Position numbers and translations under genes: made by a program | Shown here: piece by piece, positions 56,527 through 63,999 of the stretch | Layout of the letters: the number at the start of each line of letters is the position of its first letter | How positions within the stretch are numbered: position 1 is the first letter of the stretch | The notes under the pieces: generated by a model | Told to the model about the DNA's origin: nothing | Database searches by the model: none | What the model saw: only the letters and a program-made list of their open reading frames with translations | Assembly (NCBI GenBank): GCA_049968235.1 | Contig: JBMFRC010000002.1 | Location: 1 to 64,000 of the forward strand | Reading direction: 5' to 3' | DNA from: Candidatus Hydrogenedens sp. | GTDB lineage: Bacteria; Hydrogenedentota; Hydrogenedentia; Hydrogenedentales; Hydrogenedentaceae | DNA length: 64,000 nucleotides

Positions 56527-57483
56527 TTATTTCTTTCCAAATCCTTTTTTGATTTTATCAAATAAATCCCTACAACTATTTACGAATGTTTTCAAGATAT
56601 AAAGCGGATTAAATTTTGATGTTTTTTCTTCAACTGCCAGTTCCTGTCTTTCTTTCCATAATTTATATAGATTCAATAATGCATCTCTAAATTCTTTTGC
56701 AGACTGAAATCTTTCATCAGGATTACTTGCTGTGGCTTTATCTAAAAATTCATCACATTCCCGGGGCAAATCTGGTTTTAATTTAGAAAGTTTATCACCA
56801 GGTTGAGGTCTTCTCCCTACCAGCATTTCAAAGAACATAATTCCCAATGGATAAATGTCTGCCCTTTTATCTACTCCCGCTGCATTCTTTCTTTGTTCAG
56901 GTGCAGAATATTGAATCTTCCCTAAATTAGCTCCGACCATTGTTAAAGGAGTCTGGTCATCATTCAATTTTGCCAGTCCAAAATCCATTAAACGAACAGA
57001 ACCGTCCCTACAAACCATTATGTTATCCGGAGAAATATCCCTGTGAATCGTAATTTTATGAGCATGTTCCAGAGCATCTGCAATTAACGCTAAAATACGA
57101 ACTGTATTACCAAACGATAAAGGTCCTTTCTTCATAATCCAGTCACGAACACTCCGCCCATCCACATATTCCATCGTATAAAATAATTGTTCCCCTTCAA
57201 TCTGTGCATCGAATATCTTCACAATACAGGGATGATTTAATTGGCGAACTGCTTCCACTTCACGAAGAAATCGTGCAATTGCCCTCTGATTATGCTGATA
57301 CTGGGCTCGCATTAATTTCAGAGCTAATTTCTGATGTGTTTGCCTATCCTGAACCAGAAATACCTTACCCATTCCACCTCTTCCTAATGGCTTTAGAACT
57401 TCATACCTATCCGCAATTATATATGTCTCATGTTCATTGTTTGATTCTATATCTTTTGTCTCCAATGAAAGTTTCCTTCTCAT
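56527..57483 (-). CDS. Ser/Thr protein kinase (kinase domain only)
   Basis: GRGGMGKV, ALKLM, HRDISPDNIMV, DFGLAK and SAPE motifs. Confidence 0.75.
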   Translation of the reverse strand: MRRKLSLETKDIESNNEHETYIIADRYEVLKPLGRGGMGKVFLVQDRQTHQKLALKLMRAQYQHNQRAIARFLREVEAVRQLNHPCIVKIFDAQIEGEQLFYTMEYVDGRSVRDWIMKKGPLSFGNTVRILALIADALEHAHKITIHRDISPDNIMVCRDGSVRLMDFGLAKLNDDQTPLTMVGANLGKIQYSAPEQRKNAAGVDKRADIYPLGIMFFEMLVGRRPQPGDKLSKLKPDLPRECDEFLDKATASNPDERFQSAKEFRDALLNLYKLWKERQELAVEEKTSKFNPLYILKTFVNSCRDLFDKIKKGFGKK

Positions 57484-57557
57484 ATGATTTTTCGGATAAC
57501 CTTCTTGTTATTATAATACTATTACTATCATATAAAATACTCAATTTTTATATATTT

Positions 57558-58211
57558 ATGGATTATTCTTCTGCTCGAAAATCAATGGTTGAATATCAGT
57601 TAAAATCACGAGGTATTCAGTCTCCGGATGTGCTTCGTATTATGGAAAAGGTCCCCCGTCATTTATTTGTCCCTGAAGAACTCCAAGAATACGCATACGA
57701 GGACCACCCTTTAAGCATTGGTTGTGGACAGACAATATCCCAACCTTATATGGTAGCCATTATGACTGAACTATTAAAATTAAAATCATCTGATAAAGTC
57801 TTAGAAGTAGGAACAGGCTCTGGCTATCAAACTGCTGTTATAGCCGAACTTGCTCATTATGTAATAAGTATAGAACGAATACCGGAACTTGCAGAAGGAG
57901 CGGAACAACGATTGACAAATTTAGGGTATACAAATGTAAAAATTATATGTGGAGATGGTTCTATAGGCTACCCTCCAGAATCACCCTATGATGCTATTAT
58001 TGTTACTGCTGGAAGTCCTGAAGTCCCCGAATCATTAAAGAAACAATTAAATGAAGGTGGGAGGCTTATTATTCCCGTAGGGGGAAGTAATTTACAGGTT
58101 TTATTAAAAATTGTTAAACAAGGGAATGATTACTTGATAGAAAAACACACTTCCTGCATTTTTGTTCCTTTGATTGGTAATGAAGGCTGGAAAAGGTCTG
58201 GAGAAAATTAA
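57558..58211 (+). CDS. pcm: Protein-L-isoaspartate O-methyltransferase
   Basis: VLEVGTGSGYQTA SAM motif and a PCMT-family N-terminus. The track ORF start at 57204 is an extension overlapping the kinase gene. Confidence 0.8.
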   Translation: MDYSSARKSMVEYQLKSRGIQSPDVLRIMEKVPRHLFVPEELQEYAYEDHPLSIGCGQTISQPYMVAIMTELLKLKSSDKVLEVGTGSGYQTAVIAELAHYVISIERIPELAEGAEQRLTNLGYTNVKIICGDGSIGYPPESPYDAIIVTAGSPEVPESLKKQLNEGGRLIIPVGGSNLQVLLKIVKQGNDYLIEKHTSCIFVPLIGNEGWKRSGEN

Positions 58212-58323: not shown

Positions 58324-60132
58324 ATGAATCAGGAATATATAAGAAATTTTTGTATTATTGCTCATGTAGACCACGGTAAATCTACATTAGCAGACCGTCT
58401 TCTTGAGTTTACAAAAACAGTTAGTGAACGGGAACTCCGAGAACAAACACTGGATACACTGGATATTGAACGCGAACGCGGGATTACAATCAAAGCAGTC
58501 TGTGTTCAGATGCAATATATACGAGATAACGGAGAACAATATACCCTTCATTTAATTGATACGCCCGGTCATGCAGATTTTTCCTATGAAGTTTCCCGTG
58601 CACTTGCTGCCTGTGAAGGGGCATTACTCCTCGTAGATGCTACACAGGGAGTTCAGGCTCAAACCCTTGCTCACGCATACAAAGCAGTAGCACAAGGTTT
58701 AGAAATCATACCGGTTATTAATAAAATTGATTTGCCCAGTGCCGATTGCGAAGATACGCGTCGTCAGATTGAAGAAGTATTAGGATTGGATGCTTCTGAC
58801 GCTATCTTAGCCAGTGCAAAAACTGGCACCGGGACAAAAGAAATTTTGGAAAGTATTGTTCAAAAAGTTCCTCATCCTAAGGGAAACCCCGATAGTCCTT
58901 TACGAGCCTTAATTTTTGATGCTAAATACGATACTTACCGTGGGGTTGTCGTCTATTTAAGAATTGTTGATGGCTCTTTACAAAAAGGACAAAAAATTCT
59001 TTTCATGTCCACCGGTGTAAAATATGAGGTAGATGAAGTTGGTATTTTTACCCCCAGCATGCGTCCCCAAAATACTTTATCAACGGGGGAAGTGGGATAC
59101 ATGATTTGCAATATAAAAAACATCAAAGATACAAAAATTGGAGATACTGTTACCGATGCCATTCATCCCGCCGAACAACCATTACCGGGGTATGAACATG
59201 TTAAACCTGTGGTATTCTGTGGTATGTATCCCGCTGTTTCACAGGATTATGATGAATTAAGAGATGCACTCGATAAGTTAGCACTTAACGATGCTTCTTT
59301 TGAATATAAACCTGATAGTTCTGATGCTCTGGGATTAGGTTTTCGTTTAGGCTTTCTGGGGCTTTTGCACATGGAGATTATTCAGGAACGGTTAGAGCGT
59401 GAGTTCGGGTTAAATCTTGTAATGACCATGCCGAATGTTGCCTATAAAGTGTTAAAAACAGATGGAGAGGAAATCATTGTTCAAAAAGCATCACAAATGC
59501 CACAACCCAGTGAAATTGAAGTCATTGAAGAACCCTATATTCAAGCAGATATTATTTGTCCTGTGGAATACCTGAGCGCAGTAATAGATTTATGCAAAAA
59601 GAAACGAGGCATTCATGTTAAAGTGGACTATCTGGACGCTAAACGTTGCCTTGCGGTATACCAATTACCTCTTGCAGAAATTGTAGTGGATTTCTACGAT
59701 AAACTTAAGACCTGTACACGTGGTTACGGCTCATTGGACTATACTATTATAGGGTACCGTCCCGGCGATTTGGTCAAATTAGATATACTTATTAATAACG
59801 ATATAATAGATGCTCTATCTGTAATTGTACACAAAGACCATGCTATATACATGGGAAGAGCATTAGCCAGTAAGTTAAGAAAACTCATACCTCGCCAACA
59901 ATTTGAAGTTGTTATTCAAGCGGCTATTGCAAGAAGAATTATCGTCAGGGAAACAATTAAACCCATTCGTAAAGATGTTCTGGCAAAATGTTACGGTGGA
60001 GATATAACGAGAAAGAGAAAACTTCTTGAAAAACAAAAAGAAGGCAAAAAGCGGATGAAACAAATAGGAGTCGTTGAAGTTCCTCAGGAAGCCTTTATGG
60101 CTCTATTAAAGGTAAATGAAGAAGCCGAATAG
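58324..60132 (+). CDS. lepA: Elongation factor 4
   Basis: [23 protein letters not shown], with LepA length and C-terminal domain. Confidence 0.9.
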
Positions 60133-60144
60133 GAATATTGTAAA

Positions 60145-61041
60145 GTGGTAAAAACCAATCAAAGTTTTAATGATAATTCTCCTTTATCTCCAGAAGAAAA
60201 TTACACTCCCCGTATCAAGAAAAATAACTTATTTAAGAATATTGTGCAAGCCATAACAGGACCCTGGACAAAGCGGAATCTTATAGAATGGATTGTTATT
60301 ATCGGAAGTATACTTTTTATAAAAGGCTGTCTTATCGACCAATACATCATCCCCAGTGGTTCTATGGAACCTACATTACACGGTGGAAATTTATTCACAG
60401 GAGACCGTGTCCTTGTAAATAAATTTATTTACGGTTTGCGAATACCCTTTACAACCATCCGTATCCTCACATGGAGCAAGCCCAAACGATGGGATATCGT
60501 TGTTTTTAAGTGTGTCAGTAAAGAATCCGAACATTCAACATTAATCAAACGGGTTGTTGGATTACCCGGAGAAAAAATACGCATTCGGAATGGGAGAATC
60601 TTAGTAAATGGAGAGGTAATTCCTTTTCCTCCTTCAATGCCTCCAAATATTTATTATTTGAATGATGAAGATTTATTGTATCAATACAGAACCAATCCTG
60701 ACCCAAGAGCCAAAAAGATTATTGAAGAAATGTGGAAGAAATATCCTTATCGATATGGATGTCTGGATGAGGAATCCTTTTCAGTAATTCCAGAAGGGCA
60801 TTATTTCTTTCTTGGAGATAATAGTATCAATAGTGTAGATAGTCGAATTTATGGCTGGGTCCCTGAAAATCATATTATAGGTAGGGCATTTGCTATCTGG
60901 TGGCCCCCCAATCGCTGGAGAGATTTCACAGGCTTTTCTTCAACACTGTGGGGGAAAATACTTCTTTATATAATCCCTACTCTTCTAACTTTTTTTCTGA
61001 TTGTATACATATTTACAAACAAAAAGCGTTCAATTACTTAA
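60145..61041 (+). CDS. lepB: Signal peptidase I
   Basis: SGSMEPTL Ser box, KRVVGLPGE Lys box, GDNSINSVDSR and WWPPNRW. N- and C-terminal TM helices. GTG start. Confidence 0.75.
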   Translation: MVKTNQSFNDNSPLSPEENYTPRIKKNNLFKNIVQAITGPWTKRNLIEWIVIIGSILFIKGCLIDQYIIPSGSMEPTLHGGNLFTGDRVLVNKFIYGLRIPFTTIRILTWSKPKRWDIVVFKCVSKESEHSTLIKRVVGLPGEKIRIRNGRILVNGEVIPFPPSMPPNIYYLNDEDLLYQYRTNPDPRAKKIIEEMWKKYPYRYGCLDEESFSVIPEGHYFFLGDNSINSVDSRIYGWVPENHIIGRAFAIWWPPNRWRDFTGFSSTLWGKILLYIIPTLLTFFLIVYIFTNKKRSIT

Positions 61042-61077
61042 ATTAGCAATTTGATAGGAAATAAAGGAACAATTAAA

Positions 61078-62490
61078 ATGGCAAAACAACAAAACAAACA
61101 GGATAAAGGAACCCTAAGTGTGATAAGTCAGATTGTCCGTTTCACAGGTATTATTACTATCCTTATAGGTATTTATGTTATCTATCGCAGTAATCAAACC
61201 CAACCCGAGCCATCAGAACCTTTATGGTGGTTTGGATTAGGTGTATTTGTTGTGGGTTTACATCTGTTCTTTTTCAGTAATATGCCGAAACAACAAATAT
61301 ATGAATGGCTTAAAAGTGAAAGCATTGCACTCGGATTAGCTTTACTAATTCGCTGGCCTATTGCAGAGCCATATAGAATCCCATCCAGTTCAATGGAACC
61401 TACATTACATGGCGATTTCCGCTTTGGTAAAGGCGACCGTGTATTTGTAAACAAGTGGGTATATGGTGTGCGTTTTCCTTTTTTTAATAAAAGGATATGG
61501 TATGGAAAAAAACCGCAACGTTGGGAAATTGTTGTATTCAAAACGGTAGAGAATGATGCAAAACATAAAACTTTAGTAAAAAGAGTTGTAGGACTACCGG
61601 GTGAGCGTGTTCATATTAAAGATGGGAAGATATTTATTAATGGGAAACCTTTAGAATTACCCCCAGATATGCCAGATATTTATTATACATCCGGACCGGT
61701 GGGGATTGGAGGGATGGAATATGGGATACGAACTGAAGATAAGTATTCACTAATACCCGAAAATTGTTATTTTGTATTAGGAGATAACAGTGCATATAGC
61801 AGGGATGGTCGTTTTTTTGGTTGGGTTCCTAATGAACATATCGTTGGTAGAGTAAGTTGTATCTGGTGGCCTCCGTCTCGATGGAGAGATTTCACAGGAT
61901 TTAGCAAAACATGGTGGTGGAAAACACTTTGCTTACTTACTTCCATTTTTGTAATTGTCCGGTTGCTTTTTGCAAGGTCTGTTGTATGGTATACATGGAA
62001 TACAGACAAGTTATATCATTATATAGTAAACCAATTATCTTACGGTTTGAGATTACCTTTTACGAAGATATGGCTTCACACATGGAAAAAACCTGAGAGA
62101 GGGGATATTGTCGCATATATAACACCCGCGGGGGTTAAAAATATCTCTTCTGAACTTGTCCTTTGTGGAATGGTTGTTGGTATTGAAGGGGATAAAATTT
62201 CAATTCAAAATAACACGCTTTTAATTAATGGCAAAGAATTAACTGATACCCCATTTCCATTGAATAACATAGAATCCTCTTTCTCAAATCAAGAAGCACC
62301 CTATGGATTATTAAAGGACAAAGAGCATAGTATTGTACCTGCGGGTAATGTATTTATTATCTGGAATTTTCCGAAAAAGGATATGGAAATTGCTATCGAT
62401 AGTAGAATAACAGGTTGGATACCTGAAAGTAACATTCTCGGTAAACTTATTTTTATCTGGTGGCCTCCCACACATTGGAAGAAACTTTAA
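61078..62490 (+). CDS. Signal peptidase I fused to a second, degenerate S26-like domain
   Basis: The first half has SSSMEPTL, KRVVGLPGE, GDNSAYSRDGR and WWPPSRW, then a TM helix. The second half repeats the fold (LRLPF...WKKPERGDIV...IDSRITGWIPE...IWWPPTHW) but lacks the SMEPT Ser box and GDN. ATG 61078 has AAAGGA upstream. Confidence 0.6.
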   Translation: MAKQQNKQDKGTLSVISQIVRFTGIITILIGIYVIYRSNQTQPEPSEPLWWFGLGVFVVGLHLFFFSNMPKQQIYEWLKSESIALGLALLIRWPIAEPYRIPSSSMEPTLHGDFRFGKGDRVFVNKWVYGVRFPFFNKRIWYGKKPQRWEIVVFKTVENDAKHKTLVKRVVGLPGERVHIKDGKIFINGKPLELPPDMPDIYYTSGPVGIGGMEYGIRTEDKYSLIPENCYFVLGDNSAYSRDGRFFGWVPNEHIVGRVSCIWWPPSRWRDFTGFSKTWWWKTLCLLTSIFVIVRLLFARSVVWYTWNTDKLYHYIVNQLSYGLRLPFTKIWLHTWKKPERGDIVAYITPAGVKNISSELVLCGMVVGIEGDKISIQNNTLLINGKELTDTPFPLNNIESSFSNQEAPYGLLKDKEHSIVPAGNVFIIWNFPKKDMEIAIDSRITGWIPESNILGKLIFIWWPPTHWKKL

Positions 62491-63999
62491 TTACCAATTG
62501 ATTTTATAAATCTCTCCGTATTTATGCTTTAAATAGGTTATGTATGGTTGATGAGAAATATCAGAGCCCGTAATATTTTTAACGATATCCCTCGCACATA
62601 GTCTTCTACCCACTTTATATACATGCTCTTTTAACCAATCACGAATAGGAATAAAATCCCCTTGTTTAATTAACTTCGATATATCTAATTCACTTTTCAT
62701 TTTATCTGTAATTTGTGCGGAAAATAAATTTCCGAGTGCGTAACTTGGGAAATAACCGAAACTACCATGTGACCAGTGAATATCCTGTAAACAGCCCTGA
62801 GCATCATTAGAAGGATAATAACCCAATAAGGATTTGAACCGCTCGTTCCAACATTCAGGAATATCCGATATAGATAATTTTCCCTCTATTAAATCCTTTT
62901 CAATCTTATATCGAAGAACAATATGCAAATTATAGGAACATTCATCTGCCTCAACACGAATACAATTTGGAGAAACACGATTCACTTCCTTATATATAAT
63001 TTCCGGAGTTATATCTTTCAATTCTGAAGGAAAATACTTCTTTAATATAGGAAGAAGAAACATGGAAAAAGGATAACTCCGCCCGATAATATTCTCCCAG
63101 AATCTTGACTGAGACTCATGAATACCTAAGGAAGGTGCTTGTGCCAGCCATGTCCCACGGTCCTCTTTATAAAAACCCTGTTCATAGAGAGCATGCCCTC
63201 CTTCGTGAAGGGAACTAAAAATCCCGGAGAATAAATGCTCCTCATTTAACCTTGTCGTAATTCGAACATCATATACATCAAAGTTGGTCGTAAATGGATG
63301 GACAGAACGGTCCTGTCTTCCTGAATTAAAATCAAAGCCTATCGCAGTCAATAAATGAATCGTTATTTCCCATTGTTTTTCAGTATCCCAATTTTTCCCT
63401 TCAAAAACGGACTTTCCCACATCTTGTTGAAGGATTGTCTGGTATATGTGCGATTGCTCCGATTCTAATTTATGAAAAATTGTATCTAATAGTTTTGTAT
63501 CTATACCTCGTTCAAAATCTTCTAACAAAGCATCATAGGGTGAATCTATATATCCCAATAACTCTGCTCTTTCCCTGCACAGATTTATAATCGCTTCTAA
63601 AGATGATTGGAATAAAGAGAAAACCGATTTGTTTCTCGCTTCTACCCATGCATGGTAGGCTCTACTTCGTGCCTGTGCAAATTTACCTACCCATTGTTCT
63701 GGAATTTTTACAGAACGCTGATAATCATACATTGCTTCCCTGACCATCACTTGCTCATCAATGTCTAAATTATCCTGATTTTCTGTAAAATATGCCAAAT
63801 CATCACCTAATAAAGGATTCGTTTCTAATTTGTGTATCATCTCTGCTATTAATTTTAGTTGTTGCCCCCTACTTTCTGCTCCTCCTTGTGGCATATTTAC
63901 TTCTTCATCCCATTGTAATAAAGCGAAAACAGCACGAAGATTTATGATTTCTGATAATCGCTGTTTTAATTCTAAAAATCGTTCTTCCTGATTTTTCAT
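62491..63999 (-). CDS. M32 carboxypeptidase (Taq-like)
   Basis: HEGGHALYEQG (HExxH) and HESQSRFWEN are blocks typical of M32. Confidence 0.75.
   Translation of the reverse strand: MKNQEERFLELKQRLSEIINLRAVFALLQWDEEVNMPQGGAESRGQQLKLIAEMIHKLETNPLLGDDLAYFTENQDNLDIDEQVMVREAMYDYQRSVKIPEQWVGKFAQARSRAYHAWVEARNKSVFSLFQSSLEAIINLCRERAELLGYIDSPYDALLEDFERGIDTKLLDTIFHKLESEQSHIYQTILQQDVGKSVFEGKNWDTEKQWEITIHLLTAIGFDFNSGRQDRSVHPFTTNFDVYDVRITTRLNEEHLFSGIFSSLHEGGHALYEQGFYKEDRGTWLAQAPSLGIHESQSRFWENIIGRSYPFSMFLLPILKKYFPSELKDITPEIIYKEVNRVSPNCIRVEADECSYNLHIVLRYKIEKDLIEGKLSISDIPECWNERFKSLLGYYPSNDAQGCLQDIHWSHGSFGYFPSYALGNLFSAQITDKMKSELDISKLIKQGDFIPIRDWLKEHVYKVGRRLCARDIVKNITGSDISHQPYITYLKHKYGEIYKINW

Follow-up and report, generated by a model that had tools for sequence, protein, structure and literature searches.

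A Hydrogenedentota signal peptidase I fused to a copy of its own fold without catalytic residues

We observed that lepB2, the last gene of a lepA-lepB1-lepB2 string in Candidatus Hydrogenedens sp., encodes what is probably a working type I signal peptidase carrying a non-catalytic copy of its own fold. The gene (61078-62490, + strand; 470 aa) lies in a stretch of 64,000 nucleotides (contig JBMFRC010000002.1, positions 1 to 64,000 of the forward strand; hereafter the window), which we analysed by sequence comparison and structure prediction. Its product comprises three transmembrane (TM) helices, an S26 domain with all catalytic residues (unit A), a fourth helix (TM4) and a second, dead S26-fold domain (unit B). 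Bacterial type I signal peptidases are usually seen as single-domain, single-subunit enzymes, and non-catalytic accessory parts as eukaryotic. Judging from the homologues collected here, a whole phylum retains a dead peptidase fold fused to a live enzyme, and some of its members do so in both LepB paralogues.

LepB1 and unit A have intact S26 active sites

A first-pass annotation of the window had placed three S26 units in tandem after lepA, and this agrees with the Pfam matches, one of which falls in LepB1 and two in LepB2 (PF10502 in two stretches, E 7.8e-61). LepB1 (60145-61041, + strand; PF10502 E 3e-40) has, as that annotation stated, 298 aa and intact Ser and Lys boxes within one full Peptidase_S26 match. 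Its N-terminal anchor (about 60277-60336, +) is followed by the nucleophile Ser73 (SGSMEPT, codon 60361-60363), by Lys135 (KRVVGLPGE, codon 60547-60549) and by GDN224 (from 60814), and the protein ends with a C-terminal TM helix (60958-61017, +) and the tail TNKKRSIT.

The N-terminal part of LepB2 contains TM1 (residues 15-40), TM2 (47-66) and the anchor TM3 (71-95, ending in ...LLIR92WPI), which together span 61120-61362 (+) and were assigned from AlphaFold2 (AF2) helices and crude hydrophobicity. Unit A follows directly (residues 96-271, 61363-61890, +), with the motifs SSSMEPTL, KRVVGLPGE and GDNSAYSRDGR and with codons for Ser105 at 61390-61392, Lys168 at 61579-61581, GDN at 61780-61788 and Ser241 at 61798-61800. 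We counted residues column by column in an alignment of LepB2 with 105 full-length homologues (106 sequences), and Ser105, Lys168, GDN235-237 and Ser241 were each present in 106/106, in line with the earlier statement that this unit is catalytically intact. Against PF10502 (cut-off 22.9 bits), LepB1 scores 138 bits and LepB2 residues 1-306, which hold unit A, score 142 bits; against TIGR02227 (equivalog cut-off 47 bits) the values are 140 bits for LepB1 and 192 bits for the N-terminal LepB2 segment with unit A. Both units pass the profile cut-off and have the Ser/Lys dyad (Ser of box B, S-M-x-P-T; Lys of box D, K-R-x-x-G-x-P-G) and box E (GDN...S..D-x-R), as expected of MEROPS family S26A.

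Active units differ greatly from lineage to lineage in how long the stretch between boxes D and E is. The window LepB1 has ~20 extra residues there (about 166-208; 60640-60770), and some relatives have ~60-100 extra, helical-looking residues (LepB1 of locus L001, 4714-5796, 360 aa; proteins P0213, 561 aa, and P0224). This insert is lineage-specific and sits at the site of domain II of E. coli LepB.

Unit B is an S26 homologue that has lost its catalytic residues

Unit B (residues 299-470, 61972-62487, +) is recognizable as an S26 domain by several measures. The C-terminal 164 aa of LepB2 match positions 43-168 of the Pfam S26 profile with an E value of 1.6e-16, and unit B alone (61960-62487) scores 66 bits against TIGR02227, above the equivalog cut-off. 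Its sequence identity amounts to 30% with unit A (E 2e-23) and to 34% with LepB1 (E 2e-27). Since these values lie far beyond chance, the kinship with S26 is real. The LepB2 stretch R92-H111, which holds the Ser box (IRWPIAEPYRIPSSSMEPTLH), pairs without a gap with R295-H314 (VRLLFARSVVWYTWNTDKLYH), so that IR92WPIA through MEPTLH111 lies over VR295LLFA through TDKLYH314. This gap-free alignment equates the nucleophile Ser105 with Asn308 (codon 61999-62001), in a column that is variable in unit B of the 106 homologues (D/A/G/E/T/N). The catalytic Lys168 column corresponds to Gly364 (codon 62167-62169), which is Gly in 106/106; the neighbouring Cys363 is not the replacement. At the GDN column unit B reads [S/A/T/W][D/E]x in the homologues and WNF here (62362-62370), and the Lys-positioning Ser241 is replaced by A/P/V, here Ala439. 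The DSR motif is kept (62398-62406). The first-pass annotation had described unit B as lacking the SMEPT box and GDN; the catalytic residues are indeed lost, but the Ser box has been substituted in place and not deleted.

The dyad is present at the catalytic columns of unit B in 0/106 homologues, and no other conserved Ser-Lys pair was found at these columns in the 106, nor a dyad in a shifted register. Two sequences, L007 and P0216, appeared to have a second 'Lys box'; their Lys lies 4 residues upstream of the Gly and not at the catalytic position. Other conserved residues of unit B (His314 98/106, Ser442 101/106, Ser301 82/106, Lys415 85/106) could in principle let it remain an enzyme by other means, for example through His314, Ser301/Ser442 and Lys415. 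We regard this as scarcely credible. Active S26 units conserve His314 and the DSR serine as well, in non-catalytic roles, and Lys413 and Lys415 belong to a basic loop (62314-62322) that forms a low-confidence surface loop when unit B is modelled alone. All canonical pocket residues are replaced, and the Gly of GDN that makes room for the Lys has gone too. On these alignments unit B is a homologue of the S26 family and not a member of it as a peptidase, as the earlier description of a pseudo-peptidase domain had it.

Structure prediction gives the same picture. The AF2 model of full LepB2, built with the homologue alignment, has a mean predicted local distance difference test score (pLDDT) of 90.7 and a predicted TM-score (pTM) of 0.76. 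It consists, in order, of helices 15-40, 47-66 and 71-95, a beta-rich domain, helix 279-298 and a second beta-rich domain. Helix 279-298 passes straight into strand 299-305, and helix 71-95 likewise into strand 96-100. Foldseek searches of the PDB with the full model returned S26 structures only, namely E. coli LepB, SpsB and SipA, with 1b12, 9nlo and 4wvi as top matches. Unit B modelled alone (pLDDT 82.8, pTM 0.82) matched only SpsB, SipA and LepB (SipA 4n31, E 1e-5, TMt 0.68). The models thus support an S26 fold for unit B, and together with the profile match they agree with the S26 kinship assumed for it earlier.

The first-pass annotation had also given each unit a C-terminal TM helix. LepB1 and unit A have one, but unit B does not: it ends in ...IWWPPTHWKKL-stop, about 5 residues past WWPP and without a hydrophobic tail. 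Since unit B alone lies above the TIGR02227 cut-off, annotation pipelines name it signal peptidase I, and counts of peptidase units would be inflated; the database names for the fusion proteins are all plain 'signal peptidase I'.

The fusion is conserved across the phylum and under purifying selection

Next to the window protein, the survey of relatives yielded more than 120 clusters of homologues, about 467 aa long, 42-91% identical and with the same architecture. Wherever these clusters bear an organism name, it is Candidatus Hydrogenedentes or Hydrogenedens. When 1.84 billion proteins were searched with a unit-B profile, 69 representatives reached E ≤ 1e-30. The great majority of the top 70 matches have two units but only one Ser box and, mostly, only one GDN; the remainder are a few fragments and 4-5 ordinary single-unit LepBs. 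Four short matches to the profile that looked like stand-alone dead units (P0228, P0234, P0240 and P0258) begin within TM4 or within the domain and are fragments or have miscalled starts. A scan of species genomes, made by full-length alignment with patterns within unit A and incomplete outside the phylum, recovered the lepB2 fusion in seven loci (L002-L008) among the matches listed, every one of them with the order lepA-lepB1-lepB2. The same order occurs in L001, L082 and L083. Long matches from Actinobacteria (L010, L029 and L035) were rejected as fusions; each consists of two separate, fully active lepB genes.

Two of the loci, L002 (CAZZMK010000034.1) and L005 (CAZFOG010000028.1), are titled 'uncultured Nitrospirales' and 'uncultured Nitrospiraceae' despite a Hydrogenedentota-type lepA-lepB1-lepB2 locus, and L002 is 71% identical to the window LepB2. 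These records are probably mislabelled or chimeric bins.

In L004-L008, and likewise in 17 LepB1-type proteins, LepB1 too is built from an active unit, a helix and a dead unit. These two-unit genes code for about 400-460 aa (L004 1-1212; L005 4125-5444; L006 4077-5441; L007 4779-6212; L008 4866-6305), so that the genomes of L004-L008 have four S26 units in tandem. Their dead units share the Lys-to-Gly change and have lost the DSR motif. A neighbour-joining tree of 79 units unites the dead units of the two paralogues in one clade in 98/100 bootstraps, joins the phylum's active units in 75/100 and sets all Hydrogenedentota units apart from those of other phyla in 66/100; the bootstraps were run with capped distances, and with so simple a method long-branch attraction is possible. 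On this distribution and tree, the fusion is conserved phylum-wide in Hydrogenedentota and the dead units are of a single origin. The most economical history would be one early internal duplication and fusion, then duplication of the whole two-unit gene, and then loss of the LepB1 dead unit in the lineage of the window. The window LepB1, at 298 aa, stops just past its helix. Its dead unit has apparently been lost, which counts against a role for such a unit in that at least one paralogue can dispense with it.

That loss, together with the missing DSR motif of the LepB1-type dead units and with an evolutionary rate of unit B 3-9 times that of unit A, is what one would expect of a functionless duplication remnant on its way out. 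Selection on LepB2 tells otherwise. Between the window and L082 (synonymous divergence dS about 0.6-0.7), the ratio of non-synonymous to synonymous change (dN/dS) is 0.023 for unit A, 0.023 for TM4 and 0.21 for unit B; between the window and L083, where dS is near saturation, the values are 0.033, 0.043 and 0.11. At 0.11-0.21, far below 1, unit B is under purifying selection, relaxed relative to unit A. Its length is constant in lineages that are only 42-50% identical, and 11 fold positions are invariant or near-invariant across the 106 homologues. The AF2 fold is confident, and frameshifts or stops in unit B were found in no locus examined. A remnant in the course of being lost is therefore very improbable. 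Of the earlier term 'degenerate duplicate', the duplicate without catalysis stands, but the decay does not, given the phylum-wide presence and the purifying selection.

Unit B is likely on the cytoplasmic side of the membrane

TM4 (residues 279-298, WWWKTLCLLTSIFVIVRLLF; 61912-61971, +), placed by the AF2 helix, hydrophobicity and alignments, is the sole helix between the two units. Its start (FTGFS.TWW) is homologous to that of the LepB1 C-terminal TM helix, and at its other end VR295LLFA aligns with IR92WPIA, where the anchor ends; Arg92 and Arg295 are invariant and interfacial. The inter-unit linker is 47-55 aa long and has a single hydrophobic segment in 103/106 homologues. Since unit A has to be periplasmic to act and is followed by a single helix, unit B most likely lies in the cytoplasm. 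The short paralogues point the same way. Fifty-two short LepB1 forms end in a helix homologous to TM4, with a median of 19 uncharged residues, and the tail behind it is net positive in 51/52 (e.g. RQWRKERAEKKARAK), the classical pattern of a C-terminal span with its end in the cytoplasm. In the fusion proteins unit B replaces this basic tail. Ahead of the last sheet, unit A has an acidic loop (YGVxEDEYS) where that of unit B is basic (YGRsKxK), and the median net charge is +1 for unit A and +4 for unit B. From the one-helix linker and the basic tails of the short paralogues, we consider the cytoplasmic side the likely location of unit B.

Three observations count against this placement. The charge difference is modest, and unit B is more positive than unit A in only 67/106. 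The charges flanking TM4 are alike (medians +2 and +2) and do not discriminate between the sides. In LepB2-type proteins TM4 has only 12 uncharged residues between its flanking charges (Lys/Arg282 to Arg295), which is short for a full span. The last point would suit a different arrangement, in which TM4 is buried or re-entrant and a periplasmic unit B forms a pseudo-dimer with unit A and helps to bind the mature part of substrates, in the manner of the SipA chaperone or of a non-catalytic partner subunit. The pTM of 0.76 fixes the arrangement of the domains, which could be that of a packed pair, and SipA of Streptococcus pyogenes is a dead S26 domain that works extracellularly and retains its peptide cleft (PMC4049620). 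We nevertheless judge a periplasmic unit B unlikely. AF2 predicts a continuous 20-residue helix with the first strand of unit B immediately behind it, and TM4 is uniformly hydrophobic and not amphipathic. The equivalent helix of the LepB1-type fusions has 24-31 uncharged residues, that of the 52 short forms is followed by the basic tail described above, and two hydrophobic segments occur in the linker of no homologue.

A cytoplasmic unit B would be out of reach of the region around the cleavage site, to which the active site binds, and the inferred topology thus makes a substrate-binding role less likely. We know of no earlier S26 signal-peptidase-type domain on the cytoplasmic side. If the placement of unit B is right, it would be the first, and a clean example from nature of a domain whose topology was inverted and which then lost catalysis and gained a new use.

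Comparison with known systems and possible role of unit B

LepB1 and unit A share with bacterial type I signal peptidases (MEROPS S26A; E. coli LepB, S. aureus SpsB) the profile, the dyad, boxes B-E, the anchor helix and the site downstream of lepA. Unlike in E. coli LepB and SpsB, a helix follows the catalytic domain here, and in LepB2 a second, dead S26 domain follows that helix. Nine LepBs of other phyla (the six of the tree outgroup and three more) end soon past the last strand, without a C-terminal helix. SipX, SipY and SipZ of Streptomyces lividans are reported to have an extra C-terminal membrane anchor (Geukens et al., J Bacteriol, 2001); they resemble LepB1 and unit A in the helix after the catalytic domain and are not known to have a domain past the anchor.

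The closest precedent for unit B, as a dead S26 protein, is SipA (PDB 4n31, 4k8w). It is a dead S26 homologue that is needed for pilus polymerisation and in which Asp48 and Gly85 replace Ser and Lys (PMC4049620). Both SipA and unit B combine the S26 fold with a missing dyad; in both Lys has become Gly, and the neighbouring Gly and the Lys-positioning Ser are replaced as well (PMC4049620). However, SipA is a stand-alone, extracellular protein of a sortase/pilin cluster, whereas unit B forms one chain with an active LepB, is probably cytoplasmic and is encoded in a lepA operon. The two are only 16-21% identical, and our trees place unit B beside the LepBs of its own phylum, which indicates an origin independent of SipA. 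In a literature search of limited coverage, neither a fused dead S26 domain nor an S26 domain on the cytoplasmic side was found described, and no publications on Hydrogenedentes signal peptidases were found.

For the role of unit B, the eukaryotic signal peptidase complex (SPC; SEC11A/C with SPC25/SPCS2 and SPC12/SPCS1) offers a functional analogy only. In the human SPC, cytosolic accessory parts clamp and orient TM helices, and the membrane is thinned by short helices whose cytosolic ends are positive; the catalytic S26B subunit SEC11C itself has a 13-residue hydrophobic helix after its catalytic domain, which ends in the cytosol and spans a locally thinned membrane (bioRxiv 10.1101/2020.11.11.378711). 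The C-terminal helix and TM1 hold the h-region of the signal peptide, and the n-region is uncontacted (PMC13385932). The accessory subunits of the SPC are separate proteins of unrelated folds, and Foldseek found no PDB matches to them. Membrane thinning, for its part, is a feature described for the SPC.

We propose a tandem duplication of an ancestral Hydrogenedentota LepB that had a C-terminal membrane helix, and a fusion that merged the C-terminal helix of the first copy and the N-terminal anchor of the second into the single helix TM4. With this merger the second unit would end up on the opposite, cytoplasmic face, and the passage from TM4 into unit B would repeat the helix-to-strand geometry of TM3 and unit A. 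Unit B would then have lost Ser, Lys, GDN and the Lys-positioning Ser, with its fold kept by purifying selection. It may now act as a cytoplasmic anchor or clamp that fixes the short, Arg-flanked TM4 beside the catalytic anchor helix, a built-in equivalent of the cytosolic SPC parts, and its conserved basic loop might be in contact with lipid head groups or with a partner in the cytoplasm. Such a clamp or docking role is a tentative proposal by analogy. More doubtful still is the idea that unit B and TM4 form a single-chain counterpart of the eukaryotic SPC accessory subunits, serving beside the active site to set the local membrane thickness or gauge the h-region, or else docking the peptidase to SecYEG or the ribosome. 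We also considered that unit B clamps the n-region of signal peptides and ranked this low, as unit B is basic like n-regions themselves. Since the cytosolic subunits of the human SPC clamp helices and leave the n-region uncontacted, clamping or docking is more plausible than n-region binding.

Gene string and neighbourhood

The string starts with lepA (58324-60132, + strand), which encodes an EF4 GTPase of 602 aa (Pfam GTP_EFTU 8e-55, LepA_C 3e-47). Gaps of 12 nt and 36 nt separate lepA from lepB1 and lepB1 from lepB2, and no terminator-like site was found between the three genes. The lepB1 gene has a GTG start, and its product matches P0121 ('signal peptidase I [Candidatus Hydrogenedens sp.]') at 100% identity. 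For lepB2, the mechanical open reading frame (ORF) begins at TTG 61051 and would give 479 aa; the start common to relatives is ATG 61078, from which the N-terminus MAKQQNKQDKG corresponds to MEKQQ... or MSKQQ... in the relatives. This conserved start gives 470 aa, and the 471 aa reported at first needs correction.

The neighbourhood of lepB2 comprises lepA, a protein-L-isoaspartate methyltransferase (PCMT) gene and an M32 carboxypeptidase gene. The lepB2 stop codon TAA (62488-62490) directly adjoins the stop of the convergent M32 carboxypeptidase gene (62491-62493, minus strand), which leaves zero intergenic bases for a terminator; in the relative L082 the corresponding pair shares 11 nt. Upstream of lepA, the PCMT ORF (57204-58211, 335 aa) is overlong. 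Since relatives call a 208-aa product, the real PCMT start should be near 57585, and the overlap of the ORF with a Ser/Thr kinase gene on the opposite strand (56527-57483) is an artefact of ORF listing.

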